The notes: generated from the sequence alone by a model not told the origin. A stretch of DNA of 64,000 nucleotides from an uncultured Candidatus Saccharibacteria bacterium (GCA_964390745.1 CAYMIK010000003.1:6543-70542), one strand, 5' to 3'; shown: positions 33,578-60,197, counted from the first letter of the stretch. A program made the numbers and translations.

Positions 33578-33601
33578 ATTGCGAATCTGGTGGAAGCGAG
33601 A

Positions 33602-33630
33602 TTGAATTTCTTCGATCTTTGTGGTAAAAT
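33602..33630 (+). promoter_or_regulatory. Sigma70-like promoter TTGAAT-N17-TAAAAT at the head of the T4SS-like cluster.
   Basis: The hexamers and 17-nt spacer are seen directly. Confidence 0.5.
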
Positions 33631-33682
33631 TTCTTTGCAAAGTTCAAAAAGTTCAAACAAAAAGCACTTCTTCGAGGCTATG

Positions 33683-43302: not shown

Positions 43303-43828
43303 AGTATCTATCTTCATAGCATTTGCTCTGACATCACTTTCGCTTATTGGCGCGGGATGTGCTCAACCAGCTTCAAAAGTTGAGGGAGTTTCTACTGGAG
43401 AAAATGTTTCTGAGGATGCGGCGCGTGCAGGAATTACGAATGATCAACTCGATGCTATTATTACTACTGCTGAGCGATTTGCTGAACGATTTGGAACGTT
43501 TACGAACCAAGATAACTTCCAAAATTTCCAGAATCTCAAGATTTATGCAACACCTTCAATGCAGTCGTGGATGGATGGATTTGTTCAGGACGAACAAAAG
43601 AAGTTTAAAGATCAGAATATCGCATTTTACGGTGTGACAACTAAGGCGCTCACTCCTAAAGTTCTTACGTCGCGGCCTGATGACATCCAAGTGCTTATTA
43701 ATACCGAGCGACAAGAGATTACTGATCAGTCCGAGACGCCAAAAATTTCGTACCAAAACATTATTATCGACATGCAGCATGTTGATAATGACTGGAAGGT
43801 AAACTTCGCACAGTTTCAAGGAAGCTAA
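43283..43828 (+). CDS. Lipoprotein (lipobox LIGAGC), possible T4SS periplasmic component.
   Basis: MNHRLKVSIFIAFALTSLSLIGAGC signal plus lipobox. Start overlaps the VirB4 stop. Confidence 0.6.
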   Translation, partial: PMNHRLKVSIFIAFALTSLSLIGAGCAQPASKVEGVSTGENVSEDAARAGITNDQLDAIITTAERFAERFGTFTNQDNFQNFQNLKIYATPSMQSWMDGFVQDEQKKFKDQNIAFYGVTTKALTPKVLTSRPDDIQVLINTERQEITDQSETPKISYQNIIIDMQHVDNDWKVNFAQFQGS

Positions 43829-43898
43829 AGCAAAACTTCGCAAATGAGTGAATGCGCAAGTTTAAGCAGTAGGGCTTAAACTTTGTGGTTTAAAAGAG

Positions 43899-46800
43899 AT
43901 GAAACAAAATCCATTCAAAATTATACTAAAAAGTGTTCTCGTTACGCTTGCAACCATAGCGGCTGCGGTTGTTGCCTTCCTTTTTTCGCAGGGTGGGGTA
44001 CTTCGAAATGAACTTTTGCACGCACCCGTTACGACGGCTTCGGCTGCTGATGCCCACATAGAAGATGGTCCACCGTGCGATGAAGCTGTCAGCCCGGGCG
44101 ACATCTACCAAGGAAGAAGAATGGCCATAGATGTACCCGATCTTGGCATCAATCAAACGGCAACCGTAGATGTAGCTCATGAGTTTAATCAGAAATGCTT
44201 AAAGGGGCGGTTCGCTGATGATGAAATTCATGGTGGTTTTTCTACTGCGACAATCACGTACGACATGAATAATCTTACCAACAGTTGGGACACCATGGAA
44301 CGTGCTTTGGCACTTGGTGCACCTGAGGGCATTGAGGGAATGAAGGAGGGCTTTGAGCTCACTGAAATTTCCGTTTGGGATAACGACTTTACGAATGCGG
44401 ATACCACTCCCCATGCGGAACAAGATTTTCCTAACTCGTGTAACGTAATGTATACCCGTCGACGAGAAGGCCGAAGAAATGACGGACAACCACGCGTACA
44501 AGAACGTGCAAGTCTTGGTTCGTTCTGTTGTTCTAATGGGTGGGGAACGGAAGAGTACCTGGAAAATCCTGCCGAAGCTTACATTGGTGAAGGCATGGAT
44601 CCGTACGACGAAAAGTTTAAGAACTGGTTTGAAAGCTCTCCTGAGCCTGACGAAGACGGAAATCCTACCAACGGCTATTCTGGTTTCATGACAGGGCATG
44701 ACACATTACGGTGGGAGCAGACCACTCAATCGGTTGACATAACCTTTGAGCAAATTCCCGCAACCCACATGAAAAAGAATTTCAATTACACTATTCCATA
44801 TCCTGGTCTATTGTTTAAGCACCTTGCGGACCGCGGGCAGGGAATCGGGTACTACCGAAGTTCTGCTGTGGGATTCATGGACGACAAACAGGCTGGGAAT
44901 GGTGAGTGGGACGATGTTGATACGAGCGTTGGGTGCGATATGTCAGTCGAAATACCACTTCCTTGGGATGCGCCAGATGATCGAAACTGGGTAGTGCCTA
45001 CCGCGTATCCTTGTCCTTCGGCAACACCGGAGCATGATGCAAATGGAAAAGTAGCCTGGGCTCACAATGAACCCTATGTTGACGAAAACAACAATGGTGA
45101 ATATGATTGCCCAGATCCAAGCGACGATGCGACATGCGAAGACTTCGCCGATATTGGAAATGGATATGCGCGCCCAACCGATGGTGGAGAGGCGGATATT
45201 TGGACATTTGAAGCCGGTTCAGGATCGATCGATCAAACCGTTGCGCCAGAGCTTACATTTAACCGACAGCGGATTGACATCGCTGGCTCACCGAAGGGCC
45301 GCGCCATTCCGTATTCTCCCGTAACAATATTTTATCCGTTGACGAACATACATATTAAGGGAATTTTTGAGGCGTATTCACAAACACAGTGCAACTGTCG
45401 ACCAACAGATAAGGCTGGTGAAACGTCAATAAGCCCAACAGGACAGAAATTTGTTGGTTGTCAGGCTACGTTTGGTGATACTTTTGAGCCTGCGCAGTGT
45501 GGGTTTTGTGGTTCGAATCAACCGCTCTTAAGTGGTGAAGAACTCCCGAATAGTTTGGCTGCTCGTGGATACCAAAAAGCCTACTGTGAAGATTCGCTGC
45601 CACGTGTTACGGATGTTCGTTGGCCACCGATTAATTTTAATACCTACAGTTTCAATTGGGAGCTTTCGTCTGGTTCTTTGACGGCTGTCTTTGATTCGAT
45701 TTTGAAAGATACCGGGCAATTGCCACAGGTGGACATCAATGTTGCACCGGTCTCGCCACGAAAAGGGGACTCGGTACATGTTGCCGCCATTCCTTTGTCG
45801 TTTTTCCAAAATCCAAAAGACATGTATTTTGCTTGGCTCATAAATGGTAAAACACAGCAAGGCCTTGTTGCTGGTGCGGCCGAGCGCGTTCCTGGTCACC
45901 AGGCTCCACCGGATTTTGTCGAACAGGTTCCGGCTTCTGCGGATTTGCCCAATGGTGCAACGCTCGTACATAAGGAAACGAGAGAGTTTTACTTTGCTCC
46001 CAAGCGACCAGTAAAAATTGATGCCAATAACGATGGCATGGATGATGGCTGGGAGATGAGATACTTTGGAACAACCTCGGTTGATGCGGCAGCTGATCCA
46101 GACAAAGACGGCTACACGCCATCAGACTTTGCAAGCATTCGTCCAAGTATTTTTGCGAGCGGCAGCAATAACAGCAAAGAAACCTATGCCGACGAAAAGC
46201 GATTTATGTACATCACTCCGGGTGTCTGGTTGGGGAAGAAAACTTCTTCATGCAGCCAGGTATTTATCGTTCCTGACAACTTCAATCCTGAGTGGTTCCC
46301 AGAAGATCGCTTACCTGGATGTACAACGCAGCAGTCTGGCTTGAGCAATGCCGAAGAATACGTTTGGGGAACGAACCCTACCGATGCGGATACCGATGAC
46401 GATGGATTTCCTGACGGCGCAGATCTCGTTGGTGTTGGTCAAATGCAGTGGAGCTATGTGAATGAAACTGGCCCACTCGATACTAACCGCGACAAAGTTG
46501 GGGTGATCGTTCTTGGAAAGGGAAGCCAAGTTAGCGAAGCGCAGGCGGATACGCTCACACAGATCGTGTGCGTCGATAAGACTATTTATCCCGGGAGCAA
46601 TAACCAAATTGATTTGCAGGTGAACCTTGATCCAACAACGCCTGTTCCTGGAGAGCCCCTAACAATTACCGTCAACAACGGAGATCCTAGCATTAAAGAT
46701 GGCTTCTTGACCTATGACTGGAAAATTAACGGTGTTTCTAAGGGCGAGGAAGAGCAGGGAAAGAATACCTTAGAGATGAGCGCAGAAGAAACTCAGGGTC

Positions 46801-47798
46801 TGGTGACGGGTCAGCTTTTAAACATTGAAGTTACTGCTTACAATAATAATCCAAACCAACAAAGCTATGGCGGCGTTGGATCGGTTTCGAAAAGTATTCC
46901 TATTGGATTGCGTTACGACTCGCTAGAGATTACTCAGCACAGGGCCGACACGAATGAAGATGAAGTTGTTTTCCCGTTCCCATCAGAAAACCTCACCGAT
47001 GCAAACCGTGCTGAGGCACTGGCTACGCAACTCAAAAAGAATATTGTTATTAACCGAAGCGATGACGTAAAGATTTCTATTACCAATGTTTGGTCTGATT
47101 CGATAAGCAAGAATCTTTACTTTGAATGGACGGCTGATGGCTTGCTACAAAACAAGAAGGACGCCGGAAAGGGAAGTGGGGTAGGCAGCGGATATGCAAG
47201 CTATACGTTTAATCCAAAAGAATTCTTACCAAACGATCTCACGAGCATCGATCTTCCACCAAAGAACCTGGAAGTTATTGGTCGTGCAATTGATACGGCG
47301 ACTCAAAAAGAGGTTTTAAAAATCGATCTTCACTTTGCCTACGACAATCCAGGCATAACCATTTCAGAAGAAGGATCAGAAGATACGGGACAACTTGCCT
47401 TGAGGGCCAACACGACCTCACTTGCTGATGCTGGAAGCCTGTACTACACCTGGAAGATAGGCGATAAGACTATCTCGGAAGGAAAAGGTTTGAGCTCTAT
47501 CAAACTTTCGTATTTGCAAGCAAGTGCGGCGCCTATCGTTCAATTGACAGTAGCGGATTTGAGTGGAACCACTGCGAAGCAGGTGACGGTGGAGAAACAA
47601 ATTAACATCTTTGACTCCAATCTTTCTCTTCGCCAAAAAATTGGATACGGCGCGTACGGCTTCTTGCTCAATATGCGTTACAACTCCGTGAAAGTTGCCT
47701 ATGTTTTCCTTACGTTTAACCTGGTCTTCTTTGCCTTCTACGGATTCTATCTTGCCTTCAAAAAGAAAACACCTCAACACCATGCTCGCCAAGTATAA
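43899..47798 (+). CDS. Giant surface protein paralog 1 (1299 aa): N-terminal signal anchor, PKD/Ig-like repeats, TSP3-like Ca-binding core, C-terminal TM anchor.
   Basis: Y-x-W-x-I-N-G repeats (YFAWLINGK, YDWKINGVS, YFEWTADGL, YYTWKIGDK). Core IDANNDGMDDGWEMRY...AEEYVWGTNPTDADTDDDGFPDGADLVGVGQ. Hydrophobic tail plus KKKTPQ. Confidence 0.75.
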   Translation: MKQNPFKIILKSVLVTLATIAAAVVAFLFSQGGVLRNELLHAPVTTASAADAHIEDGPPCDEAVSPGDIYQGRRMAIDVPDLGINQTATVDVAHEFNQKCLKGRFADDEIHGGFSTATITYDMNNLTNSWDTMERALALGAPEGIEGMKEGFELTEISVWDNDFTNADTTPHAEQDFPNSCNVMYTRRREGRRNDGQPRVQERASLGSFCCSNGWGTEEYLENPAEAYIGEGMDPYDEKFKNWFESSPEPDEDGNPTNGYSGFMTGHDTLRWEQTTQSVDITFEQIPATHMKKNFNYTIPYPGLLFKHLADRGQGIGYYRSSAVGFMDDKQAGNGEWDDVDTSVGCDMSVEIPLPWDAPDDRNWVVPTAYPCPSATPEHDANGKVAWAHNEPYVDENNNGEYDCPDPSDDATCEDFADIGNGYARPTDGGEADIWTFEAGSGSIDQTVAPELTFNRQRIDIAGSPKGRAIPYSPVTIFYPLTNIHIKGIFEAYSQTQCNCRPTDKAGETSISPTGQKFVGCQATFGDTFEPAQCGFCGSNQPLLSGEELPNSLAARGYQKAYCEDSLPRVTDVRWPPINFNTYSFNWELSSGSLTAVFDSILKDTGQLPQVDINVAPVSPRKGDSVHVAAIPLSFFQNPKDMYFAWLINGKTQQGLVAGAAERVPGHQAPPDFVEQVPASADLPNGATLVHKETREFYFAPKRPVKIDANNDGMDDGWEMRYFGTTSVDAAADPDKDGYTPSDFASIRPSIFASGSNNSKETYADEKRFMYITPGVWLGKKTSSCSQVFIVPDNFNPEWFPEDRLPGCTTQQSGLSNAEEYVWGTNPTDADTDDDGFPDGADLVGVGQMQWSYVNETGPLDTNRDKVGVIVLGKGSQVSEAQADTLTQIVCVDKTIYPGSNNQIDLQVNLDPTTPVPGEPLTITVNNGDPSIKDGFLTYDWKINGVSKGEEEQGKNTLEMSAEETQGLVTGQLLNIEVTAYNNNPNQQSYGGVGSVSKSIPIGLRYDSLEITQHRADTNEDEVVFPFPSENLTDANRAEALATQLKKNIVINRSDDVKISITNVWSDSISKNLYFEWTADGLLQNKKDAGKGSGVGSGYASYTFNPKEFLPNDLTSIDLPPKNLEVIGRAIDTATQKEVLKIDLHFAYDNPGITISEEGSEDTGQLALRANTTSLADAGSLYYTWKIGDKTISEGKGLSSIKLSYLQASAAPIVQLTVADLSGTTAKQVTVEKQINIFDSNLSLRQKIGYGAYGFLLNMRYNSVKVAYVFLTFNLVFFAFYGFYLAFKKKTPQHHARQV

Positions 47799-50034
47799 AA
47801 GCATTCTTACAATTTTTGCGGTACTCGTCCTGGGTCTTTTGATTTTGGCGCCAGAAATCTCCGTTGAAGCTGAATCGGTTAACAAAATTCCTGACCGAAC
47901 GGTGGGCGCAAACGGTGCAAGTGAAACACCGGACCCTCCACAAACTTCAAGTGCCGACGTCTTTCCTCCCTTCCAGGTCAGTGCGGGCTCTATTATCACG
48001 GGCATCAACTATAAGTTTAATAGCACGCAAGACCTTACGGACGCCTTCAATGGTGCTGGCAAGAAACTCGCTATCCCAATGGTGAACATTTCTATTGCTG
48101 GAAATGGTGTCGCTGAGACAGGTGCAACAACGCTCGTTGCACAGCCATTGAATTTTTCTGGTACGTTTGTTGATCAATATTTTGCGTGGTGCGTTGGAAG
48201 CAAGGAACGAAGAATTTCACAAAATGGTATTGTTGCGGGCGGAACTCGCATTCCTCTTGATGGAAATGGGAGTGATTGCTACGACGACGTTACGAGAATA
48301 CCAAGTAAGTCTGATGATACTGACTCTAATGCCGATGGAATGGGGGATAAGTGGGAGCAGCGATATTTTGGAACGTTGAGTGTTGATCCTCGAGGTGATA
48401 AAGACCAAGATGGATTTTTACTTGATTCAACGAATGCGCCGGTTGGGCCTGACGGGGTTATCAAACTTGTCCCAAATAGTATTGCGGGGACACGTAACTA
48501 TGATACCTGTGACGGAACATTTCAAAATGCTGAGGAGTGGGTATGGGGAACAAATCCAATTGATCCAGACTCCGACGATGATGGTTATAGTGACGAACAA
48601 GATGTATGTGGTAAGGGTCAGCTCAGCTTTGGATACACACCGCCAGATGGTGTGACACAAGAGAATCCTGAATTTGCTGAAGTTATTGCTGACGGCTATT
48701 CATTGTTTAAAGAAGAAAATGGCCAGCTCCAAATGGCAAAGATCGCCAACTCTGGTCAGACGCTGTTTATATCACAAGGTCAACCATTGGATGTAGCGCT
48801 GGATTACCGCATCGTCAATCTTTCAACGGAGCAAAACCAGACGACACAAGAAAACACCAATAACGGCAAGCTTCAGAAGGATATATATGTTAACGATGAA
48901 GTAGAAATGCATGCTGCGGTAGGGAACAATCAAGAGGCTGAAGGTAATCTTCATTACCAGTGGAGTTTCCAGCTTCTCGATGGTGGTGTTGACGATCCTG
49001 CGCATCCCGAAACCGTCATTGATAGTGTCGGTCCACTTCCTTCGCATTACGGAATTCCGGACAGTCGGCTGGGTGGGCGTGCGGGATATGGTCTGAATCC
49101 CTATCGTCTTAAAATTGCCGCTGCTGGAACAGATGAAACTGGCACGGGTTTTCACATTACCCCAAAGACGGGCAACAAAGTGGTTGTCACTGTTGCCGTG
49201 AATGAACCAAGTACAGGAAAGAGAACCGAGATCCAACAGAGTTTTCCTATTGCAACTTCGGTAACGTTGGATTTTGAGCCTGGGCTTCCTATTCAGCCAT
49301 TGTACCCACAAGCAGATATTTCTACAGCTCCAGAGTACACCGTTACAGCTATTGCGCCGGGTCTTGCAACAAACGACTTTTTGTATGAATGGTATGTTGA
49401 TGAAAAGCTTCAACCGAATTCGAAGATCGGTGGGGATAGTTTGAAGTTCAAGGCAACGAAGCCATCGGGGAGTTATAAGATCTCTGTTGTCATGACACGT
49501 GTTGCTGATGAGAAAGTTTTTGCCAAGGTGACTACAAAGGCCATAGTTTCGCCCTTGAAAGTTTCCATAACCAACTGTCCCGACTACACGCAAGGTGGGG
49601 TCGTGAACGCACCAGGTAAGTCAATTGCACTGAATGCGAACATTACGGCCCAAGGAACATTTCCTGGGAGCTTGGAGTACCAGTGGTTCGTTAACGGTAA
49701 GCCGCTCACCGACGTCCTTACAGCACCACAAAATTCTGTAACCTTCATACCCACGCAAGAAGGTGCGTACAACATAAGTTACTTCATCCAGGCTGTTGAG
49801 CCTACTGAGGCAAGTGCGGTACGGTTTGTACCGTTCGCTATTGAAGATAGTTGTCTCATATCGGTAACCGGCTCTACTACCGTTACCACTGCACAGGCAT
49901 TTTCGAGGCTGGTTGCAAGCGCTGTTTTTGCTATCCCCAGTGTATTTCGGGGGGTATTGACTTTTGGGGCGATAATCTTTGTAATTTTTGGTATAATATT
50001 CCTAGTACGAAACAAAAAACACAGAAAAACATAA
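47782..50034 (+). CDS. Giant surface protein paralog 2 (about 750 aa).
   Basis: Signal anchor ILTIFAVLVLGLLILAP. DSNADGMGDKWEQRY...AEEWVWGTNPIDPDSDDDGYSDEQDVCGKGQ core. C-terminal TM plus RNKKHRKT. Overlaps the upstream stop. Confidence 0.75.
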   Translation: MLAKYKSILTIFAVLVLGLLILAPEISVEAESVNKIPDRTVGANGASETPDPPQTSSADVFPPFQVSAGSIITGINYKFNSTQDLTDAFNGAGKKLAIPMVNISIAGNGVAETGATTLVAQPLNFSGTFVDQYFAWCVGSKERRISQNGIVAGGTRIPLDGNGSDCYDDVTRIPSKSDDTDSNADGMGDKWEQRYFGTLSVDPRGDKDQDGFLLDSTNAPVGPDGVIKLVPNSIAGTRNYDTCDGTFQNAEEWVWGTNPIDPDSDDDGYSDEQDVCGKGQLSFGYTPPDGVTQENPEFAEVIADGYSLFKEENGQLQMAKIANSGQTLFISQGQPLDVALDYRIVNLSTEQNQTTQENTNNGKLQKDIYVNDEVEMHAAVGNNQEAEGNLHYQWSFQLLDGGVDDPAHPETVIDSVGPLPSHYGIPDSRLGGRAGYGLNPYRLKIAAAGTDETGTGFHITPKTGNKVVVTVAVNEPSTGKRTEIQQSFPIATSVTLDFEPGLPIQPLYPQADISTAPEYTVTAIAPGLATNDFLYEWYVDEKLQPNSKIGGDSLKFKATKPSGSYKISVVMTRVADEKVFAKVTTKAIVSPLKVSITNCPDYTQGGVVNAPGKSIALNANITAQGTFPGSLEYQWFVNGKPLTDVLTAPQNSVTFIPTQEGAYNISYFIQAVEPTEASAVRFVPFAIEDSCLISVTGSTTVTTAQAFSRLVASAVFAIPSVFRGVLTFGAIIFVIFGIIFLVRNKKHRKT

Positions 50035-52628
50035 TGAAACAAAAGTTCGCAAGTGGAGTTTTTCTGACCCTCGTGCTTGCCGGGGTTGTTTTTTTAATTC
50101 GAACGAATTTTGCCTCCGCACAAAAGATATCAACGGGCGACGAGAACGGTGCTGCCATTCAGGATAACAAAGGCGTTGACGAAGGGTTCAATAACGAGGA
50201 AGAAGACATCCATGGGTGCGTCTGGAATAAAGACGTTTTGCCCAATGGAGCAGTAAACTATCACACCGAGGAGCCACAAGCGCCGCCGGAGTTTTATATC
50301 GAAAGTCCGCCCTTGGGAGATCCATGCAATTTCTACGAACAAAACGATTGGAAGAACCTCAAGGACAAAGGTGAAGAAGCGCTTTGGCCTATCGGGTGTT
50401 TTAACCCGGTAAACCTTTACGTTACTCCACTTACGGGCTCGCTACCAGCATGGATTGGCGCGTATGGAGCCTTCGAGTTTAACAAGAATTACGATTCTTG
50501 GGATGAGATGTACTATGCCACCATGGGAGCATTCAATAAGCGTCAGAATCCACCGAACGTTGACCTCAAAGTTGCAAGCATGGATCCCGCTGTTGGCTCG
50601 CAGATGAACCTGACCGCAGGACCCCTTCGGTATAATTCGCCGCTCAATAAAATTCTCTACGGCTGGTCAACACAACTTCCTGGCGAATCATATGTAAGCC
50701 AAGAAGGTCTTGTTGCTGGTGGGCGAGAGCTCACGCAGGCTGACGTAAATGATATTAGGGTTGGTGGCAAAGAAGTAAATTTTGGTGCGTGTAAGCGTGT
50801 GACACGCAAGGTTGTAACCGACTCAGATAAAGATGGTCTTGATGATAATTGGGAGAAGCGATATGCGCCAAACGGGGACATCTCTAAGATCACGAGAGAT
50901 GGGGATGACGATAAAGACGGTATTGTGTTGGCTCAAGTGCTTGCACAAGAAAATAAGCCACCACTTGATCCAGAAGGGAACCCTATTGATGAGCCAGATG
51001 TGTATTCTGGTATTCGTGTAACGCCCGATACAACCGCCTCTTCGGCTCCTGGAGATGGTACATTTACCAACCAAGAGGAGTTTATTTGGGGAACAAACCC
51101 CGAAGATCCTGATACGGATGACGATGGTTTCCCCGATGAAGCCGACATCTTGGGCCTGGGTCAAATGAACTTTAAGGCAACAAGCCATATTGATCAGCGC
51201 GAAGGCGTTGATGATCGAATGAATTATCGAGTTGCAACGGTGGGTATTTCAAATTTTGCGAGCGAGGATAACTCTGGTCATAAAAAAGTTTTCATCGACA
51301 GCGAGGCGAAGACGGTATACGCGGGAATACAAAATAGCCTGGATGCCAGCCTCTTGAATATAAACGAGCAACCGAACGCTAACAATGTCACAGGGATTTC
51401 GCAGTTGAATAATGGCAGTGATATCTATGTTGAGGCCAGTGCCTTCCAGTCGGAAGGGGACAAGGCAGCACTTGATTACGCATGGTTTGTGCAATTAAAA
51501 GACCCCAGCAACCAAGAACTCAGCGAAAAGGTTCATGTTCCATCAACGCCAGATTTTACGAAAGAAGATATTCAGCAAGAAAGCGGAAGAATCGGGAAGT
51601 ATATTTTCCGTCATAAGCTTACGGAACTCGAACAGTACATGAAAGATAACCTTTCAGCTCCCTATACGTTTGATGGTGCGCCTGGTTCGCTTATCTACAT
51701 CACGGTGGAGATGTGTAATCTCGTAACGCACGAGTTTGCTTCGAAGCGAATTCCTATAGCCATTGGTTCCGACAAAACGATGGCTATTCAAATCACTGAT
51801 TTGAATACAAGCGAGACCATGAGTATCGAAGACTATACGGCAAAGTACTGCTCGCAAGATGTTGCAAAGAATCAGCTGCCAAACCCGGCATTTTGCGCGT
51901 ATCAAGGCAGATCCCTCAATGAAATTCTCCCATGGATCGTATTTGAAGGCTCTCGAATTGTTGTGACGGCCGAACCTATTCAGGCAGATGCAAAAAATGT
52001 CACCTTGGAATGGTGGGTAAACGGTGAGAAGGTGAACGAAGCATACGGCCCAGATTCGCAAGATAATCAACTCACAATCTATCCCGAGTCAACAACACAG
52101 GTGTACACCATTCAAGCGAAAGCATATACAAACGACAAATACAGAAATGAAATTTATAATGGACAGGTGAGTATGCAAGTGATGGGACCAGAGGTAGCAG
52201 TTCTTAATACACCACTTACTCCAACGGTGGGGTCTTCCCTTCAACTTTCTGGGCAGCTTTTGAATTTCCCTGAAACCAATGTTGGTTCGTATTCGTGGAC
52301 CATTACCAGCCCTAACGGAACGGAGCAAAAACTCACGGGCAAGAACCCAACATTGAACGTCTCCGATGCGGGAAATTATCATGTGAAATTAGAAGTTGCG
52401 TTCCAGGGTGCAGAAAATACACAACGTGTTCTTGTGACAGAAAAAGACATCACGGTTGGAACTGCAACGCTTACTCCAACGGCACAGATTCGAAAAACAT
52501 TGGCAAGCATGGCAAGCATTGTGCAGGCACAAAGTATCCGCGTGTATGAGTTTGCCTTTGTTGGTTTCATCGTGCTCATTGGCGTTCTGTACTTCTTTGG
52601 ATTCATAAAAAAACGATCAGCTGCATGA
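50034..52628 (+). CDS. Giant surface protein paralog 3 (864 aa).
   Basis: TAATG overlap start. Signal anchor. DSDKDGLDDNWEKRY...QEEFIWGTNPEDPDTDDDGFPDEADILGLGQ. C-terminal TM plus KKRSAA. Confidence 0.75.
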   Translation: MKQKFASGVFLTLVLAGVVFLIRTNFASAQKISTGDENGAAIQDNKGVDEGFNNEEEDIHGCVWNKDVLPNGAVNYHTEEPQAPPEFYIESPPLGDPCNFYEQNDWKNLKDKGEEALWPIGCFNPVNLYVTPLTGSLPAWIGAYGAFEFNKNYDSWDEMYYATMGAFNKRQNPPNVDLKVASMDPAVGSQMNLTAGPLRYNSPLNKILYGWSTQLPGESYVSQEGLVAGGRELTQADVNDIRVGGKEVNFGACKRVTRKVVTDSDKDGLDDNWEKRYAPNGDISKITRDGDDDKDGIVLAQVLAQENKPPLDPEGNPIDEPDVYSGIRVTPDTTASSAPGDGTFTNQEEFIWGTNPEDPDTDDDGFPDEADILGLGQMNFKATSHIDQREGVDDRMNYRVATVGISNFASEDNSGHKKVFIDSEAKTVYAGIQNSLDASLLNINEQPNANNVTGISQLNNGSDIYVEASAFQSEGDKAALDYAWFVQLKDPSNQELSEKVHVPSTPDFTKEDIQQESGRIGKYIFRHKLTELEQYMKDNLSAPYTFDGAPGSLIYITVEMCNLVTHEFASKRIPIAIGSDKTMAIQITDLNTSETMSIEDYTAKYCSQDVAKNQLPNPAFCAYQGRSLNEILPWIVFEGSRIVVTAEPIQADAKNVTLEWWVNGEKVNEAYGPDSQDNQLTIYPESTTQVYTIQAKAYTNDKYRNEIYNGQVSMQVMGPEVAVLNTPLTPTVGSSLQLSGQLLNFPETNVGSYSWTITSPNGTEQKLTGKNPTLNVSDAGNYHVKLEVAFQGAENTQRVLVTEKDITVGTATLTPTAQIRKTLASMASIVQAQSIRVYEFAFVGFIVLIGVLYFFGFIKKRSAA

Positions 52629-54937
52629 AACGTTTTCTTGAAAAATTTGGTGCGTTCATTGTTTCCGCTGCAATGATGGTGGCCCCATTCTTTTCCGTGA
52701 AGCCTGCACAGGCGCAGCTCACTGATGACTCGGGGCTTGCGGTGGACATAAGTAAGGACTGTGCCGATATTGCAGAAGACCAGAGTGCTCCTGACCCCGG
52801 CAATGTATTTCCGCCCGACTTTGTTATTGACTGGCCCCCGTTTATTGGCCCGCCATTTCCCACGGCGACATATCCTTTAGGCCATCTTGACTGGAAGGTG
52901 AATTCATTTGCCGAGTTCTTTGACTCGATGGGTTTTATAAATAACTCGCAATCAACGCCACCAGAAGTGAAGATTACTGCTGCCTCTTTTGGGAGCCACG
53001 AAGGTGATCCGATTACACTCATGGCGCAGCCTACGAGTTTCCAAACCAAGCCTGATCAGCTCGACTACGCGTGGTGGAATGTTGTGAAACCAGAAGGTTC
53101 GAACGAAGAAACCCTCTACAGTTTAAATGGTGTCGTTGCGGGTGGTGAACCATTCACTTTACGAGACAAGCCGTTTTCTGATGGGACGCGATGTGGCGTG
53201 ATGACGCGAAAGCCAACATTGGACGAAGACAATGATGGTATGGATGATCAATGGGAGCGCCGATACTCCGGAAAAATTGGGGGCCTTGAAGCAGGAGCAG
53301 ATCTGGATGGCGATGGTTATTTGGCTGATTCGTTTCAAGACAACGTGACGCTGGCACCGTATCGCATCGTTTCGAATTCGCAAGGTCAGGATGCGAAAGG
53401 TGCTAAGAAAACCAAATTTACAACAGGAGATAACTCCTTCGATAACCTTGAAGAATATATTTGGGGAACCAATCCAACTGATCCAGATACGGATGATGAC
53501 GGATACCCAGATGAGGCTGATGTTGCCGGCATTGGGCAAATGCAACTTCACTACACGCCAGATCTGGTTGCTGGTCAAAGCCAAACGGTTGAGCTTGACG
53601 CTATGGGGGAGACGTTTTTGAAAGGAGCCAACGAAAACCTCGTAACGCAGATCGTTGCGTATCGTTCCAATATTGCTGTTAATCTCTCGAAGCAACTTTC
53701 TATTCAGCTTGCTGCCTCAACGCAAAGCCCACAATTGGGCGAACCATTTCAGGTTCAGGCAAATTTATTTGGAACCGATGCTATTCCTGCAAGCCTCGAA
53801 TATACCTGGAGTATTACTGATGGGACAAAAAATATTGCGCTGAATCAAGAAGGCGCACCATGTAAACTCGTAAGCTTTGGTAATATTGTGGAGTGTAACT
53901 TCGGAGCGGGGGAGGTGTCTTCCGGCGACTCTGTTGTCTATGACCTCGATGTATTTGATCCATTGCTTGGTGAACACGTGAAGGCAAGCCTTTCGGTGCC
54001 TATCGGCAATACGCTCATTCTGTCAGCAAACCCCACACTAGTCCCGCAGTATCCTATTGATCAGACTGGTGAGTTTGTCGCAGCGCCCGCTGGGAATACA
54101 GAACTCGGTGAGCGATGGGTGGAGCTTACGGTAGACCTGGGCGATGGAAGTCCAGAAGACTATAACTTCGACTGGTTCGTGGATCAAACCAAAATGGAGG
54201 ATACGTGCTCTTCAATACCGCTTTCCTTCTCGGGCAAGGCAAAACCAGGAGGTGTTGGCCTGTGTGGAATTGGAACAAACATCTTGTACTATCATGCAAC
54301 AAGCACCAATACACACGTCTACGATATCGAAGTTCACGTTACGAATAAGCGCGATGGCTCTCGTCTTGCGGACGAAACGCTACAGCTCTTCACCGATCCA
54401 ACGCCAATGCCATTCCCCGGGCAGGAGAATGGGGTAGTAGGTGCTGCGTCGCAGACACAGGCATCGGCAATTCAGGTGCAAGCAACACCGGCGGATGCGA
54501 ATGCGCAGATCGTTGTACATGCGAACAATATCGAAACTTCACCAACAAATTCTTACACCTACAACTGGACAGTTGATGGGGCTAACGTCGCTAGTTCCTC
54601 ACAGAATCCTCGTGAACTTGTTTTTGCAGCTGACCCTGATAAGTCGCAGTACAATATTTCGCTGCAAGTGATTGAAAAGAGTGGCTCAAAGCTTGTATCG
54701 CAGAAGACGAGTAGTACCGTAGTTGCTGTTGATGTGACTTCAAAGTTTGACCGATGGAAGAGTGCTCGGCTCGCCTCCGTTGCTGAAACGCTCTACCCCC
54801 TGTATCATAGTATTGCCGGCAACACGAGTCTCTTCTTGTTGCTATCGGGTTTTGTGTTCATTGCTTCGGTCTATTTTCTACAAAAAAACACAGATGGTTC
54901 ACGCGGACCGGGTACCAAAGCTTCCAAGACATCATGA
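52625..54937 (+). CDS. Giant surface protein paralog 4 (770 aa).
   Basis: ATGA overlap. Signal peptide ...VKPAQA. EDNDGMDDQWERRY...LEEYIWGTNPTDPDTDDDGYPDEADVAGIGQ. C-terminal TM. Confidence 0.75.
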   Translation: MKRFLEKFGAFIVSAAMMVAPFFSVKPAQAQLTDDSGLAVDISKDCADIAEDQSAPDPGNVFPPDFVIDWPPFIGPPFPTATYPLGHLDWKVNSFAEFFDSMGFINNSQSTPPEVKITAASFGSHEGDPITLMAQPTSFQTKPDQLDYAWWNVVKPEGSNEETLYSLNGVVAGGEPFTLRDKPFSDGTRCGVMTRKPTLDEDNDGMDDQWERRYSGKIGGLEAGADLDGDGYLADSFQDNVTLAPYRIVSNSQGQDAKGAKKTKFTTGDNSFDNLEEYIWGTNPTDPDTDDDGYPDEADVAGIGQMQLHYTPDLVAGQSQTVELDAMGETFLKGANENLVTQIVAYRSNIAVNLSKQLSIQLAASTQSPQLGEPFQVQANLFGTDAIPASLEYTWSITDGTKNIALNQEGAPCKLVSFGNIVECNFGAGEVSSGDSVVYDLDVFDPLLGEHVKASLSVPIGNTLILSANPTLVPQYPIDQTGEFVAAPAGNTELGERWVELTVDLGDGSPEDYNFDWFVDQTKMEDTCSSIPLSFSGKAKPGGVGLCGIGTNILYYHATSTNTHVYDIEVHVTNKRDGSRLADETLQLFTDPTPMPFPGQENGVVGAASQTQASAIQVQATPADANAQIVVHANNIETSPTNSYTYNWTVDGANVASSSQNPRELVFAADPDKSQYNISLQVIEKSGSKLVSQKTSSTVVAVDVTSKFDRWKSARLASVAETLYPLYHSIAGNTSLFLLLSGFVFIASVYFLQKNTDGSRGPGTKASKTS

Positions 54938-57900
54938 AAAATAAAAATCTTTTTGCACAACTCGCACTTGCTTTTGTCGCGGTGGCCGTAACCAGCGGCG
55001 TTGTATTTTTTGTAGCCAAGCATCAGGCCTTTTCTGCAACAGTCACGCGAGATGGTGCCGCTTCCATTAACACGCAACGATTTGCCTTTCCGGCACGGAG
55101 CGGAACATCAACATTTCAAGTTGTTTCATTGCCAGAAACGCAATATGTTGCTGGGAATGTTGCCAATGATCCGTCCGTTGATGACTCGCAGTTCGTTGGG
55201 AGCTCCATTTTTACCATGTGGGATGGCACAGCAACAACGAGTAACTACGTGAACTTTGCTCACATGGGTCAGAACAGCGAGACTTCGGATAATTTCTTGT
55301 TGCAATTCTTTAATCAGACTCAGTGTATTGCTAACCCCGATGGAAAATCTGTTCCGGGAAACTTGAAAGACAAAAAGTTCACAGCAACATTTGTGAAACC
55401 CAATCTACTTTCGTCCCTGGAGACGACAACAAAAGCGGTGGTTCGTGCCTATGACGACTTCACGGTAGAGTGGGGAAACGGCCAAGTGAAAGTCACCATG
55501 CAGCGATACTGGCGCAAAATAAATCTTCCCGATGGCACAACTTCTGGAGCATTGAAACCAAATGATTACAATATCCAAAAACCGGAAGACTCAGACGTAG
55601 TAAGCGCCAGTGCTCCGGTAATTATGGTGCTTCCGTACGATGGTGACTTTGCTCCGCTCTCAACTCGTGTTGGGCATGGCGATCCGTACGATACGGAAAA
55701 GTTTGCTCGTCCAGCGCAAGTGCTTGTTGATGGTCAGGAAAACTTTGATTTCAACTTCTTTGACATATCAACAAGTGCCGAAGGGGAAGGTACTAGCCCT
55801 GACGAAGTTTCGTGTCGCCTGAACACCAACACAACCATTGTTGAAAAAACCCAGCCCTGCGGCTGTTTGAATAATGCTGATCAAAAAACATGCGGTGATC
55901 CAGAGGTTCCATTTGTCGATTTGTGGCCACCCGTGCAATTTAGTCTTGCATCGGGAACACAGTGGCAAGTAGAAAACATCTCTGATTTGCGTGACGGTAT
56001 TTCAAGCTACGGCGAACAATTTATGGACGATGCTATTGTTCGACTTGAGCTGAATGGGTATGACCCCTCACCAGGATCGAAGTATGTTGCACAAACATTT
56101 ATTAGCAACTTCCGAACCAAACCAGAAAACGCCTACTTTAGTTGGTGCTTTAATGGAAAATCACAGCAAGGTCTTGTTGCCGGCGGTGAGTGGATTACGG
56201 AAACAAAATCTACCACCGCAACACTTGATGCTGACGCTTCTGGATGTTGTGACTTTGTCACGCGAACACCCGCAAAAGACGCCAACAAAGACGGCATCGA
56301 CGATGAATGGCAGTTGAAGTATGGGTACAAGCTCACCGGCAATAAAGATTACATGTTGCCGGCAAATTATGATGACGATGTTGCGGCAGCAGGGGATCCA
56401 GCGGGCGTGACGGGTGACGGCTTTGTTGCTGACCAGTTTTTGGATACCGCAGGTGCGCGTATTGCTGTAACGCCTGGAACCATAACCGCCAAAAAGAATA
56501 ATTTCCCCAACGGTCAGGAACTTCCTACTGGCGACGGGCACTTTACTGCTGCCGAAGAGTATATTTGGGGAACTGACCCCACGGAATACGACTCTGACTT
56601 TGATGGCTATCCAGACGAGGCAGACATTGTGGGTATTGGGCAACAAAAAGTTGAGTTTATTTCGCAGCTCCAGCCTCGCGACTTTCCAACGGACGACACG
56701 GCGGGCAATGATCGTTACAACCTCAAAGTAAAAACCCTTGGTCGCACGGGGCAAAAACGTCCTGATACCATTGATGTTGCCGATCAACAAACAGAAACAG
56801 GTCTTGATCTCCAGAATGTCGTCCGAATTGCAGAAGACACCAAAGATATCTTTGCGCGAGATCCAGGATCACTTACGGTTGGCTTGCAGGTAAAACCAGA
56901 AACGCCAGGTTTAAATGATTCGTTTGTTGTGTCTTCAAACCTATCTCAGGGCTCGCGACTTGGAGGAAATCCAAAGTACTCTTGGTTCTTTAAGCGTATC
57001 CCCGGAAACGGAAACAATCCAGCGCCTGGCCCAACGAATGGTAAAACTGCGGCATTCAGTGGTGAAGGCCTCAGCTCTATTGATCTTAAAACGTACAACA
57101 AGCACGTTTCGGATATTTGTCCGGAGTGTGCTCCAGGCGATGAACTTCAGATAACGGTACAGGTTGAAGATACCGTTCGCGGCAGTGTTACCAGCAATAC
57201 TACCTCGCTTAGCATTGGTCTGAATAATTCGCTGCAGGTCTTTCAGGATTGCAATAAAGATGGTGCCGACGAAGAAGTGGGGAGCGGTACCTACTGTTTC
57301 AAGTCAAGCGGTGTAACCAAAAATATTCCTGTTCGTGTTGCGGTGAACTTTTTGGACGCGGTTTCTGATGACTATATCTTCAAGTGGAAACTTGATAGTG
57401 TTTTGCAGACCTCGAATTGTTTGCTGAAGAATGAAACAAGTACCACAACCCCGCGCAAGTGTGGTCTTGGCACGAGCCAAATGGTGTTTACGCCAACGAA
57501 AGATAGAAAGAACTATTCTGTTGAGGTTCTGGTCTACAAGAATGATCGAAATATTCCCGAAGGTCAGCAAAATCTTGCACCCAGTGCTGCTGTGGCACAT
57601 TTCACGACGACCGTCGCCTCGGGAACTCCTGCGGTGACCATTATTTTCGAACCAGCACCTGGTGACAACGGGGGATATGCACCTGGTTCAGCGGTAACTG
57701 CCCGTGCCTATGTTGATTTCTTGGATCCCAAGCCTCTTGGCCAACTTGCTGTTGATCCCAAAGTTCCTGACTCTCAAGATGGTGCCCATGCTCTTCGATA
57801 CGTCTGGCGATCAGCCTCAGATGGTTCTATTTTGAAGGTTGATGAAATTTCGAGTATCGACGGTAGTACGCTTGCTATTCAATCGCCCAAGGCAGGAATT

Positions 57901-58173
57901 TTTGGAGTTTCAGTCGAAGTTGTTTCGCCGGACTACACTGCTCCCAACAATACGAAGGCATTGATTCCTCTCGCGTATACCAATCAGGCGTACTTTGGCG
58001 AGCTGCTTCCAGAAAGCTCTCTGATAGGGCTCGTTTCGGTACGACTTGCCGCTATCCTTGGATTCATTCCAGAACCGCTGGTGAAGATGATCCAAGTACT
58101 TGGCGTCGCTGCATTTGGTGTAATTCTCGTGCTTGGGTTTGCGTACATCCCACGAAAACTTCGCCAAAAATAG
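54934..58173 (+). CDS. Giant surface protein paralog 5 (1079 aa).
   Basis: ATGA overlap. Signal anchor. DANKDGIDDEWQLKY...AEEYIWGTDPTEYDSDFDGYPDEADIVGIGQ. C-terminal TM plus RKLRQK. Confidence 0.75.
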   Translation: MKNKNLFAQLALAFVAVAVTSGVVFFVAKHQAFSATVTRDGAASINTQRFAFPARSGTSTFQVVSLPETQYVAGNVANDPSVDDSQFVGSSIFTMWDGTATTSNYVNFAHMGQNSETSDNFLLQFFNQTQCIANPDGKSVPGNLKDKKFTATFVKPNLLSSLETTTKAVVRAYDDFTVEWGNGQVKVTMQRYWRKINLPDGTTSGALKPNDYNIQKPEDSDVVSASAPVIMVLPYDGDFAPLSTRVGHGDPYDTEKFARPAQVLVDGQENFDFNFFDISTSAEGEGTSPDEVSCRLNTNTTIVEKTQPCGCLNNADQKTCGDPEVPFVDLWPPVQFSLASGTQWQVENISDLRDGISSYGEQFMDDAIVRLELNGYDPSPGSKYVAQTFISNFRTKPENAYFSWCFNGKSQQGLVAGGEWITETKSTTATLDADASGCCDFVTRTPAKDANKDGIDDEWQLKYGYKLTGNKDYMLPANYDDDVAAAGDPAGVTGDGFVADQFLDTAGARIAVTPGTITAKKNNFPNGQELPTGDGHFTAAEEYIWGTDPTEYDSDFDGYPDEADIVGIGQQKVEFISQLQPRDFPTDDTAGNDRYNLKVKTLGRTGQKRPDTIDVADQQTETGLDLQNVVRIAEDTKDIFARDPGSLTVGLQVKPETPGLNDSFVVSSNLSQGSRLGGNPKYSWFFKRIPGNGNNPAPGPTNGKTAAFSGEGLSSIDLKTYNKHVSDICPECAPGDELQITVQVEDTVRGSVTSNTTSLSIGLNNSLQVFQDCNKDGADEEVGSGTYCFKSSGVTKNIPVRVAVNFLDAVSDDYIFKWKLDSVLQTSNCLLKNETSTTTPRKCGLGTSQMVFTPTKDRKNYSVEVLVYKNDRNIPEGQQNLAPSAAVAHFTTTVASGTPAVTIIFEPAPGDNGGYAPGSAVTARAYVDFLDPKPLGQLAVDPKVPDSQDGAHALRYVWRSASDGSILKVDEISSIDGSTLAIQSPKAGIFGVSVEVVSPDYTAPNNTKALIPLAYTNQAYFGELLPESSLIGLVSVRLAAILGFIPEPLVKMIQVLGVAAFGVILVLGFAYIPRKLRQK

Positions 58174-58227: not shown

Positions 58228-58857
58228 GTGAATATAAAAAGTAAAAAACAATTTATTGCTGCCTTTTTTACCGTAACGAGTCTTCTCGGAGTGGTTTTTT
58301 CTGCGAGTGCACCTTCTGCTTTGGCGGAAACAGCGGGTGCTTGTCCGGCTGACACCGTTTCGTTTGTTTTAGGTGGAGGAGTCTCAAAAGGCGCGGATGG
58401 AACTGCAACCGTTGCGCCTTCCGTTATATGCTGTTGTGATGCGAACAAATTTCGTGGCGTAACTATCACACACGGTTCCACGCCAAAATGTCCAACCCAA
58501 AACAATGCCTGTAAGCCACTGAATATTGGTGTTGTTTCCAGATCGGATTTTCTTGCGGCTCCAGATGACAACAACCAAGATCTTACCGTTGACACCAACT
58601 CGCCACTGTACCCGCTAAAAGACCTCGCAAAGTATGTAGGGAACTGGTACACGGCACTCTTTTACCTTGCTGTCGTTCTGGCAATCATCCAGATCTTCCG
58701 TGGCGGCATTGAGTACTCCATTGCTGCTGGTAACTCTTCCAAGACCGAAGAGGCGAAGGGCTATATTGTTGAAGCCGTCGTTGGTTTGGGCGTAGCTTTG
58801 CTTGCTGCAGGAATTCTCGTGTTGCTTCGTGGCCCAAACATTTTTTCTTTTTCATAA
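58228..58857 (+). CDS. Small secreted Cys-containing protein ending in two TM helices (VirB2/TrbC pilin-like topology).
   Basis: GTG start with GAGGGAAA RBS and a TATAAT box upstream. Signal peptide. C-terminal helices ALFYLAVVLAIIQIF and IVEAVVGLGVALLAAGILVLL. Confidence 0.5.
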   Translation: MNIKSKKQFIAAFFTVTSLLGVVFSASAPSALAETAGACPADTVSFVLGGGVSKGADGTATVAPSVICCCDANKFRGVTITHGSTPKCPTQNNACKPLNIGVVSRSDFLAAPDDNNQDLTVDTNSPLYPLKDLAKYVGNWYTALFYLAVVLAIIQIFRGGIEYSIAAGNSSKTEEAKGYIVEAVVGLGVALLAAGILVLLRGPNIFSFS

Positions 58858-58863
58858 GAGTCT

Positions 58864-60102
58864 ATGCGACGAAGAAATCTTTTTATCGCTATTGGTGTAC
58901 TGGTCGCTGTTGCTATTGCAGCACTTATTTTTGTTTTTGTTCGAAGCCGCAACTCTACGGTGGGCGAGCCTATCAACAATGCTTCCAATACCTCATCAAA
59001 TGCGCAACTTTCGAATAACTCTGACAACACGAACTCCAATGGTACCAACAATACTACCAACGGTAATGGCGGTACAACGGACAAAGGGCCGATTGTAAAA
59101 AAGATTATCTCGAGCAAGGTGTTGTCACCAACCTTGAATGGTGGAAGCAATGCCTTGATTTTCTTTAACGTTGCTTCGAACCAGTTTTATAGCGCAGCCA
59201 TAGATGGAAGCAACCCGCAGGCTCTGACGCAAACAAAATTTGTGAATGTTTCTGATGTGAAAATTTCTCCAGCAAGGACCACTGCTATTCTTTCGTTCCC
59301 AAACCCGAACGGGAAGGTCCCCATAAAGTACTACTATGACCTTACGAAAGATTTGGCTGTAAAACTCAATGAAAACCTTGATACGTTTACATTTTCGCCT
59401 GATGGTGCAAAGCTTTTTTACAAGTACACTGACGTTTTGAAAAATGTAAATACATTTAATCTTTCGAATGCAAATGGAACGGACTGGAAAGCGATTAAGA
59501 ACTTTTCCATATCAAATGTTTTGCTCGATTGGATTCCTGGACAAGCCGGAAAGTTGGCCTTTCACTTAACTCCAAGTTCGTTCCGACAAAGCGCCTACTA
59601 TGTTTTTGATCAAAATGGTGAGAATGTCGTTTCTGTTTTGGATAAGGGGTACGGTGTAGATGGCTTGTGGTCAAACAATGGTCAACGTCTTCTTGCAACC
59701 TTTGCGTTGCAGCGAACAACCAATCTGGGCCTTGTTGCCGTAAACTTGGATGGATCGGGAAATATTAGCATTCCAAACTCGCGGACCTTCATTCAAAAGT
59801 GCGTCTGGATGAAAGATAATATTTCGGTCATTTGTGCTGTTCCTAAAACCCTTGACCCGAGGTACTTCCTGCCTGATGACTACAACAACGGAAATTTTTC
59901 AACCGATGATGACTTTTTCCGATTCAACACCAAAACAGGGGAGCACATTCAGTTGAAGCTCCAAGCGGCGAATGATAAAACTGATATTCCAAAGATTGAT
60001 GCTTCGAACCTGTTCTTGAGTAGTGACGAATTGACGTTGTATTTTGTGAATAAGGCTGATGGACAGACGTTGTATCGCGTGAGACTCGACGAGGCGTTCT
60101 AG
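58864..60102 (+). CDS. Membrane-anchored protein with an Asn/Thr-rich linker and a predicted beta-propeller (TolB/PD40-like) domain.
   Basis: N-terminal TM. Low-complexity N/T-rich stretch. Repeated beta-strand-rich segments (FSPDGAKLFYKYTD...). Confidence 0.45.
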   Translation: MRRRNLFIAIGVLVAVAIAALIFVFVRSRNSTVGEPINNASNTSSNAQLSNNSDNTNSNGTNNTTNGNGGTTDKGPIVKKIISSKVLSPTLNGGSNALIFFNVASNQFYSAAIDGSNPQALTQTKFVNVSDVKISPARTTAILSFPNPNGKVPIKYYYDLTKDLAVKLNENLDTFTFSPDGAKLFYKYTDVLKNVNTFNLSNANGTDWKAIKNFSISNVLLDWIPGQAGKLAFHLTPSSFRQSAYYVFDQNGENVVSVLDKGYGVDGLWSNNGQRLLATFALQRTTNLGLVAVNLDGSGNISIPNSRTFIQKCVWMKDNISVICAVPKTLDPRYFLPDDYNNGNFSTDDDFFRFNTKTGEHIQLKLQAANDKTDIPKIDASNLFLSSDELTLYFVNKADGQTLYRVRLDEAF

Positions 60103-60197
60103 GCTCGTTGGTATAACAAAAGCTTAATCTTTGTGTTCTAGATTTGAGGAGCTTCGAGAATCGAGGATTTTTTGGTAGTATAAAGGAAAGGAGAATT

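Follow-up and report, generated by a model that had tools for sequence, protein, structure and literature searches.

Type IV secretion systems (T4SSs) of Gram-positive bacteria rely on surface adhesins, and in a phylum-wide survey of 2025 none of these, PrgB-like ones included, was detected in Patescibacteria (PMC12102498). The T4SS is essential for the epibiotic growth of Southlakia, the one member of these very small, host-dependent bacteria in which this was tested (PMC10633639). Surface adhesins are already known from monoderm T4SS operons (PrgB, PrgC), and the protein family described here differs from them in homology, anchor and paralog number. The window analysed was a whole stretch of 64,000 nucleotides, recorded as DNA of an uncultured Candidatus Saccharibacteria bacterium (GCA_964390745.1, CAYMIK010000003.1:6543-70542), and all positions are counted from its first letter. 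At 43899-58173 it carries an array of five co-directional genes, G1-G5. Their products are paralogs of one architecture encoded within a T4SS locus; this position is deeply conserved and the proteins fall into stable orthogroups. It is somewhat probable that G1-G5 are non-redundant type-I membrane proteins which serve as dedicated extracellular parts of a Patescibacteria-type (monoderm, MPF-FATA-derived) T4SS and mediate host contact.

The genes of the array are as follows.

43899-47798, + strand: G1, 1299 residues; signal peptide, Cys-rich paralog-specific head of about 535 residues, core, Ig-like modules, transmembrane anchor
47782-50034, + strand: G2, 750 residues; signal peptide, core, about four Ig-like modules, juxtamembrane helix, transmembrane helix
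50034-52628, + strand: G3, 864 residues
52625-54937, + strand: G4, 770 residues
54934-58173, + strand: G5, 1079 residues; signal peptide, lectin-like head, core, Ig-like modules, C-terminal juxtamembrane and transmembrane helices

Every junction within the array was found to overlap, by 17 nucleotides between G1 and G2, as TAATG between G2 and G3, and as ATGA in the case of both G3/G4 and G4/G5. A preliminary description of the window, made from the sequence alone, had proposed five genes with these coordinates and lengths and their translational coupling through overlapping stops and starts; both were borne out. Its term "giant" was too strong, since proteins of 750-1299 residues are large, not giant. 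Annotated public proteins identical to the G1-G5 products exist. In a promoter/terminator scan, no terminator-like site was found between the array genes. The promoter-like sites of the scan were no better than chance, and the terminator-like sites numbered 31 vs 21.0 ± 5.0 in shuffles, about 2 standard deviations above. A hairpin with a 10-bp stem was located at 43858-43883 (+), directly upstream of G1, in the sole sizeable gap (70 nucleotides) of the gene cluster. It may serve in regulation or processing, or have arisen by chance.

The five proteins had been described as paralogous, and pairwise BLASTP confirmed it: all 10 pairs matched with E values of 2.6e-16 to 6.5e-29 and identities of 24-31%. 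The region common to them is an Asp-rich core of about 230-290 residues with 32 invariant alignment columns. The first part of the core is Ig-like and terminates in [FY]-[AS]-W ... Q-x-G-x-V-A-G-G, which is followed by a T-R motif, by D-x-[DN]-x-D-G-x-D-D-x-W-E-x-x-Y and then D-x-D-x-D-G, and by the last motif, E-E-[YFW]-[IV]-W-G-T-[ND]-P-x-[DE]-x-D-[ST]-D-x-D-G-[YF]-x-D-x-x-D-x-x-G-x-G-Q. Because the invariant columns include W, V, A, T, P and Q besides the Asp/Gly loops, the core is not mere low-complexity Asp-rich sequence. The search of a core profile against the open reading frames of the window resulted in exactly five matches, to G1-G5, plus a weak match to the gene 33590-34711 within its TSP3 block. 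The cores were located as follows.

45615-46466, + strand: core of G1, residues 573-856, core profile 310 bits
47956-48645, + strand: core of G2, residues 59-288, core profile 327 bits
50439-51188, + strand: core of G3, residues 136-385, core profile 328 bits
52826-53563, + strand: core of G4, residues 68-313, core profile 325 bits
55918-56667, + strand: core of G5, residues 329-578, core profile 304 bits

At the DNA level, only a block of about 90 nucleotides encoding EEYIWGTNP...GQ was recognisable among the paralogs, with 64-72% identity and differences at third (synonymous) positions. As the likeness of the DNA is confined to this one diverged block, both assembly duplicates, an alternative that the preliminary description had raised, and recent gene conversion are ruled out. 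G1-G5 are old, anciently duplicated paralogs. The heads of the paralogs are mutually unrelated (hhalign probabilities below 15%). The sole relationship detected by hhalign across the heads of paralogs and clades was that between the heads of two groups of relatives of about 1000 residues from other lineages.

The array belongs to a run of 18 co-directional genes at 33590-60102 with gaps of at most 70 nucleotides. The order of the run is TSP3_bac protein, two unknown genes, VirB6/TrbL, one more unknown gene, PrgI, TrsD/TraC-like, VirB4, small protein, G1-G5, pilin and 412-residue protein. The members with assigned features, other than the array, are listed below.

33590-34711, + strand: membrane-anchored TSP3-repeat protein, first gene of the cluster; TSP3_bac 33.5 bits (cut-off 25), E 3.8e-8
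36504-38705, + strand: VirB6/TrbL-like polytopic membrane protein; Pfam TrbL 35 bits (cut-off 25.9), multiple transmembrane segments
39869-40552, + strand: PrgI (VirB3-like); Pfam PrgI 43.9 bits
40554-41303, + strand: TrsD/TraC-like; 86% identical to the gene of locus L001 which carries PF26593 TraC-like
41284-43302, + strand: VirB4 ATPase; P-loop_TraG 96.4 bits, CagE_TrbE_VirB 30.5 bits
43289-43828, + strand: small membrane-anchored protein between VirB4 and the array; transmembrane segment, no family match
58228-58857, + strand: VirB2-like T4SS pilin; PF18895 T4SS_pilin 33.8 bits (cut-off 26.6), residues 138-199
58864-60102, + strand: 412-residue membrane-anchored protein, always after the pilin; Asn/Ser/Thr-rich linker, weak DUF5050 match as the sole family match

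The array had been placed next to a T4SS-like cluster. It actually lies inside the cluster, with the VirB6, PrgI, TrsD-like and VirB4 genes upstream and the PF18895 pilin gene starting 54 nucleotides downstream, and this placement supports the functional link of the array to the T4SS genes that had been proposed. The locus combines VirB4, PrgI/VirB3, VirB6, a TrsD-like protein and a PF18895 pilin with no adjoining relaxase or coupling protein, as in Patescibacteria-type T4SSs. No relaxase or coupling protein was found among the open reading frames of the window scanned with Pfam, a few frames below 320 residues being outside that scan. The window copy of the TrsD/TraC-like protein had no Pfam match. 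The TSP3-like repeat noted earlier in the first gene of the cluster proved to be bona fide; its product has a transmembrane segment at residues 46-73 and matches the core profile at positions 198-233 only, and an ortholog of 62% identity occupies the corresponding position in L001. Orthologs of the small protein (43289-43828) were detected at the same position with identities of 78% in L001, 55% in L023 and 55% in L031. Those of the 412-residue protein, also at the same position, were 57-64% identical in L023/L024 and 46% in L032, with weaker matches in L003/L027. The latter protein is probably another uncharacterised T4SS-associated component.

The pilin of the cluster has 209 residues and consists of a signal peptide, a Cys-rich extracellular segment of about 100 residues and the pilin domain; its counterpart in L003 has 392 residues. 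A second protein with PF18895 T4SS_pilin (34.5 bits, residues 62-128 of 316) is encoded at 7279-8229 (+), about 25 kb upstream and with no T4SS gene nearby.

A synteny comparison with related genomes, suggested in the preliminary description, was carried out with the nine loci with an informative flank (L001, L003, L023, L024, L027, L028, L031, L032 and L034). In all nine, the order was VirB4, in some cases the small protein, the array and the pilin, with T4SS adjacency in each and copy numbers of 3-5, while VirB4 identity ranged from 90% down to 56%. In L001 (a JGI contig), VirB4 and the small protein are followed by G1-G5 orthologs of 1292, 750, 857, 729 and 1076 residues, 51-61% identical to those of the window. 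The corresponding series of L023 is VirB4, small protein, 1253, 750, 828, 751 and 1054 residues (39-46% identity), pilin, a 401-residue protein and RadA, and that of L024 is 1208 or more, 763, 887, 759 and 1075 residues, pilin, a 415-residue protein and RadA. At least four array members follow VirB4 and the small protein in L031, and at least four were also found in L028 (VirB4 60%). In L003 (VirB4 65%) and L027 (VirB4 63%) there are three members of about 660-705 residues each and then the pilin, and L034 (VirB4 56%) has at least one member before the contig end. The pilin was found after the array in L003, L023, L024, L027 and L032. On the contig of L028/L029 (JGI 3300078497), two small genes (248 and 221 residues) lie between VirB4 and the array, and at least two array members of L028, the side-by-side P0058 and P0129, end in an amphipathic helix with no transmembrane segment.

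The sizes of the orthologs recur in constant order in L001, L023, L024 and L031, being about 1250-1300, 750-815, 828-890, 729-792 and 1054-1079 residues. In a neighbour-joining tree of 80 cores, which is distance-based and carries no support values, five orthogroups were obtained, each comprising a window gene and its L001, L023 and L024 counterparts. The search of 1.84 billion representatives with the core profile resulted in 5012 matches at E ≤ 1e-3. Among the best 150 of these, about half were full-core proteins of 640-1330 residues and the rest were multi-TSP3 giants matching only positions of about 125-235; among the matches listed, the full core module was found only in Patescibacteria-type loci. 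The scan of species-genome contigs yielded one full-core relative (L003, labelled Patescibacteria) among the 20 loci listed, the others being generic TSP3 proteins. Six metagenome contigs, three of them informative, were retrieved with a degenerate DNA pattern for EEY[IV]WGT[ND]P. In homolog searches with single proteins, solely the orthologs of the query were present among the matches listed, and the matches listed for the five-paralog alignment were all G1 orthologs.

A longer match in L018 (543-3983), from an Anaerolineae metagenome-assembled genome, was rejected as an unrelated 1146-residue TadE-like protein with TSP3 repeats and Calx-beta. The N-terminus of this protein is that of a TadE-like pseudopilin, the TSP3_bac repeats number seven and accompany the Calx-beta domains, and the gene adjoins another Tad-like gene. 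The protein is another instance of TSP3 repeats on a pilus-associated protein.

The N-termini of all five proteins consist of a basic n-region, a hydrophobic segment and A-x-A-like sites, and the C-termini of a transmembrane helix with a basic tail. The two membrane elements that had been assigned to each protein were therefore seen in 5 of 5, and the signal peptide together with the C-terminal anchor supports the proposed surface display. The C-terminal layout is family-wide (57950-58173 in G5, with equivalents in G1-G4) and consists of an amphipathic 'LAS-x4-IP' juxtamembrane helix, the transmembrane helix and a basic cluster. This tripartite arrangement resembles the layout of a protein-sorting signal; neither a known CTERM model nor any other C-terminal sorting model of NCBIfam was matched, and no LP.[TSA]G motif (LPXTG) was found in any of G1-G5. 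Of 81 family representatives, 65 have kept the C-terminal transmembrane helix. The order from the membrane outward is transmembrane helix, juxtamembrane helix, 3-5 Ig-like modules, core and paralog-specific head.

In the preliminary description, each protein was assigned PKD/Ig-like modules with a Y-x-W-x-[VI]-[ND]-G signature and a TSP3-like calcium-binding repeat, and both assignments held in part. The Ig-like fold was supported by structure prediction. The PKD matches were below the Pfam gathering score of 27 (PKD_4, 21.7 bits in G3 and 16.9 bits in G1), no PKD match (PF00801 or PF18911) was obtained for G2, G4 and G5, and the signature was exact in some modules only, the others retaining just [YF]-x-W. 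As for the repeat, each core has three loops whose invariant D and G correspond to the D-x-D-x-D-G calcium-loop consensus, while the Pfam threshold was not reached: TSP3_bac (PF18884) scored 16 bits in G1 vs the cut-off of 25 and did not match G2-G5. Among 53 diverse family members, PKD models matched 8 and TSP3_bac matched 3 at E ≤ 0.01. The loop consensus suggests that the core may bind calcium. The core belongs to no family of Pfam, NCBIfam or the PDB, searches of the family against NCBIfam and PHROGs gave nothing, and PDB sequence searches with the core, the whole-family alignment and the G1-ortholog alignment found no relatives.

AlphaFold2 models of G2 and G5 were built on a 25-sequence alignment. 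The mean predicted local distance difference test (pLDDT) value of the G2 model was 65.6, with 80-92 in the C-terminal beta-sandwich modules, and that of the G5 model was 74.3, with 80-91 in the core. In Foldseek comparisons with the PDB, both models matched strings of Ig-like/MG/FN3/BIg domains, for example those of complement C3, SiiE, Hoc and an archaeal S-layer protein, with low TM-scores. Judging by these scores, the likeness of the whole multi-domain proteins is generic. A relationship to alpha-2-macroglobulin/complement was rejected, as the matches were to generic MG/FN3-like sandwiches and one weak A2M Pfam match was found among the 53 members. The approximate position of the G5 head was as follows.

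55066-55818, + strand: head of G5, about residues 45-295, predicted laminin-G/ConA-like jelly-roll

In structure comparison, this predicted membrane-distal fold resembled LG/LNS or lectin domains; no Pfam family matched G5 at E ≤ 0.1, Laminin_G and similar families included. The predicted fold suggests that the head may bind a ligand or carbohydrate. The head of G1 is highly conserved across 8 orthologs, with dozens of invariant residues, many of which are C, G, D or W.

In the proposed host-contact role, each protein would be exported by its Sec-type signal peptide and retained in the membrane by the C-terminal helix with the basic tail. The 3-5 Ig/PKD-like beta-sandwich modules would form a stalk above the 'LAS-x4-IP' juxtamembrane helix, and the core would be an Ig-like sandwich with three EF-hand/TSP3-like D-x-D-x-D-G loops, presumably stabilised by Ca2+. 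Distally, G1 and G5 would carry their large paralog-specific heads, the latter with a predicted laminin-G/ConA-like lectin fold. The array genes lie between virB4 and the gene of the virB2-like pilin and are coupled in translation, so that the proteins would be co-produced with the machine. As a fixed set, they would most likely be displayed around the T4SS, bind structures on the surface of the host or of a partner cell and maintain the contact between the two cells through which the T4SS works. We infer that the proteins bind Ca2+ and a glycan or other ligand, adhere to the host, and associate with each other or with the pilus. The lineage-fixed number and order, the predominance of the core that they share and the C-terminal amphipathic helix kept by relatives without a transmembrane helix indicate a defined set rather than interchangeable variants, and G1-G5 probably act as such a set. 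A more specific version, in which the 3-5 paralogs form a hetero-oligomeric extracellular collar or tip complex through Ca2+-binding cores and C-terminal helices as a hitherto unrecognised, lineage-specific T4SS substructure, is tentative and on balance doubtful. If true, this complex would be the monoderm epibiont counterpart of the diderm outer-membrane core complex and pilus-tip adhesin, and the physical junction for the uptake of host material.

Several findings weigh against the host-contact role. Anchoring is not universal, about 14 of the 81 family representatives having no transmembrane helix, most of these retaining the amphipathic helix. No sequence homology to a characterised adhesin or T4SS component was found in Pfam, NCBIfam or PDB. 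The lectin-like fold of G5 is a prediction from the 25-sequence alignment, and its location within the AlphaFold2 model is likewise inferred. Copy number varies by lineage (three, at least four, or five), which fits independent adhesins and a strict stoichiometric complex alike. In the Saccharimonadia model for which essentiality was shown, other genes lie downstream of virB4 and the essentiality is not transferable to this family.

Among the rival explanations, the one that survives best is that the proteins form a purely structural hetero-oligomeric collar or conduit through the cell wall or S-layer, a counterpart of the outer-membrane core complex with no part in adhesion. This would agree with the shared core, not the heads, being the most conserved element, and with VirB7/9/10 missing from monoderm T4SSs (PMC12102498). 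The translational coupling suggests balanced co-production, and the relatives with an amphipathic helix in place of the transmembrane segment, such as the adjacent P0058 and P0129, suggest anchoring by partners. However, it is not evident how 3-5 copies would fit a single fixed, symmetric assembly, and the predicted lectin-like head at the distal end of G5 points outward to a ligand. A purely structural role is considered unlikely.

The next alternative is an interchangeable, fast-evolving adhesin repertoire which tracks different or changing hosts, in the manner of variable pilin or adhesin arrays, and it was evaluated from the evolutionary rates. Between the window and L001, L023 and L003, VirB4 identities were 90, 84 and 65%, and those of the TrsD-like protein 86, 74 and 50%, respectively. 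The corresponding values of G1-G5 were 51-61%, 39-46% and about 25-30%. For comparison, the window and L001 share 41% in VirB6, 56% in PrgI and 52% in orf270, and the identity of the pilin with that of L023 was about 31%. Conservation within the orthogroups was even along the full length, paralog-specific parts included; for instance, the ortholog conservation of G2 residues 391-600 was 0.57-0.71. As the rates are comparable and the conservation even, G1-G5 evolve like other extracytoplasmic T4SS parts and not like hypervariable adhesins. Synonymous sites are saturated, since the closest orthologs are just 51-65% identical.

The repertoire would be compatible with the surface exposure and the mutually unrelated heads of the proteins and with their varying number among distant lineages, and the Patescibacteria VirB2-like pilin arrays, of about 25% mutual identity, have been read in that way (PMC12102498). 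Against it, orthogroup number, order and size are stable though the orthologs are just 39-61% identical, and the paralogs, with 24-31% protein identity and one 90-nucleotide DNA block in common, show neither recent duplicates nor conversion tracts. Among orthologs, the parts specific to one paralog match the core in conservation, and divergence is no faster than that of VirB6, PrgI or the pilin. We regard such a repertoire as distinctly unlikely. The term "diversifying adhesins" of the preliminary description is contradicted by the same five stable orthogroups, even conservation and divergence rate not above other T4SS envelope parts. The high divergence it had noted outside the conserved block holds between paralogs and does not hold between orthologs, which are conserved over their whole length.

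It is very improbable that G1-G5 are general cell-surface or S-layer-type proteins whose T4SS placement is functionally meaningless. Foldseek also matched Ig-domain S-layer and capsid-decoration proteins, but the VirB4-pilin placement was kept in every informative locus over the whole range of VirB4 identity, and the genes overlap within the array and are tightly spaced to their neighbours. That the proteins are secreted T4SS substrates or effectors, a protein-export role being plausible for a locus with no nearby relaxase or coupling-protein genes (PMC10633639), is scarcely credible, as Sec-type signals and C-terminal anchors are opposite to what cytoplasmically recruited substrates carry.

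KsgA is encoded upstream of the T4SS cluster, and RadA and RecG downstream. The genes located on its flanks were the following.

24694-26208: ComM-like Mg-chelatase ATPase
26821-28968: UvrD
60144-61535: RadA
62348-63994: RecG

The T4SS loci of the class ABY1 often contain recG and radA, KsgA is frequent in the vicinity of virB4, and recombination and competence genes are co-located with the T4SS in this class; the Saccharimonadia model locus is described with other genes after virB4 (PMC12102498). The gene context therefore suggests an ABY1-like host. The affiliation with the candidate phyla radiation/Patescibacteria in the preliminary description stands; Saccharibacteria, which it also named, is not indicated by the KsgA, RadA and RecG context, which fits ABY1.

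Further from the cluster, the region 476-3338 contains the gene of a large serine recombinase (Resolvase, Recombinase, Zn_ribbon_recom), the 3' end of which overlaps an oppositely oriented tRNA gene (2117-2190), and after it the gene of a 321-residue protein with a Dockerin_1 match. This region may represent the border of an integrated element. At 16152-19648 (+), downstream of PNPase, two abutting tandem DUF3352 paralogs of 534 and 630 residues are encoded.

No description of the family was found in the literature searched, the coverage of which was incomplete, so that an earlier description is possible; within that literature, the G1-G5 family appears to be undescribed. The part of the supplements of PMC12102498 that was available mentions neither TSP3 nor PKD. 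With regard to how the Patescibacteria T4SS reaches and holds the host cell, the family supplies definite candidates for the part that is extracellular or contacts the host. With the sequence profile of the core, further members can be sought in other genomes. T4SS biology would gain a new structural module should the five-subunit set turn out to form a defined complex.

In comparison with known systems, the VirB2-like pilin arrays of Patescibacteria (Saccharimonadia, Microgenomatia) are likewise tandem, structurally alike paralogs of about 25% identity in a T4SS cluster (PMC12102498). They differ in consisting of pilins of about 100 residues, as opposed to multi-domain proteins of 650-1300 residues, and in occurring mainly in other classes; in the window locus, the array is followed by just one pilin. 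Bacterial TSP3 proteins (PF18884), and the thrombospondin type-3 'calcium wire' on a lectin-like domain, share with G1-G5 the D-x-D-x-D-G consensus and the ...GT[ND]P-x-D-x-D-[ST]-D-x-DG unit, and the core profile cross-matches thousands of multi-TSP3 proteins over positions 125-235. In contrast to these, G1-G5 have three degenerate loops only, sub-threshold in Pfam and embedded in a fixed module of about 240 positions with an Ig-like sandwich.

Salmonella SiiE and the Marinomonas ice-binding adhesin, large Ca2+-binding proteins which are both among the Foldseek matches of G2, also have strings of Ig-like domains as a stalk. They are secreted by a type I secretion system and contain several thousand residues with near-identical repeats, whereas G1-G5 are Sec-exported, membrane-anchored proteins of 750-1299 residues with few divergent modules; the TM-scores of 0.1-0.27 correspond to a generic likeness. 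In the case of PilC of Streptococcus sanguinis type IV pili, the lectin module is fused to a pilin on another scaffold, and the likeness is at fold level only, with 6% identity.

The PrgB-type adhesins are comparable with G1-G5 in several respects. PrgB, with PrgA and PrgC of Enterococcus pCF10, is encoded within the operon of a monoderm T4SS belonging to the class ancestral to the Patescibacteria system, and surface display, an elongated stalk, a distal binding domain and an expected role in holding cells together are common to both. The sequences have no detectable homology in Pfam, NCBIfam or PDB. The anchor of the PrgB type is LPXTG/sortase-dependent, and that of G1-G5 is a transmembrane helix with a basic tail. 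Finally, the PrgB-type adhesins are encoded by single genes, whereas the Patescibacteria-type locus has 3-5 ancient paralogs built around a unique Asp-rich core.

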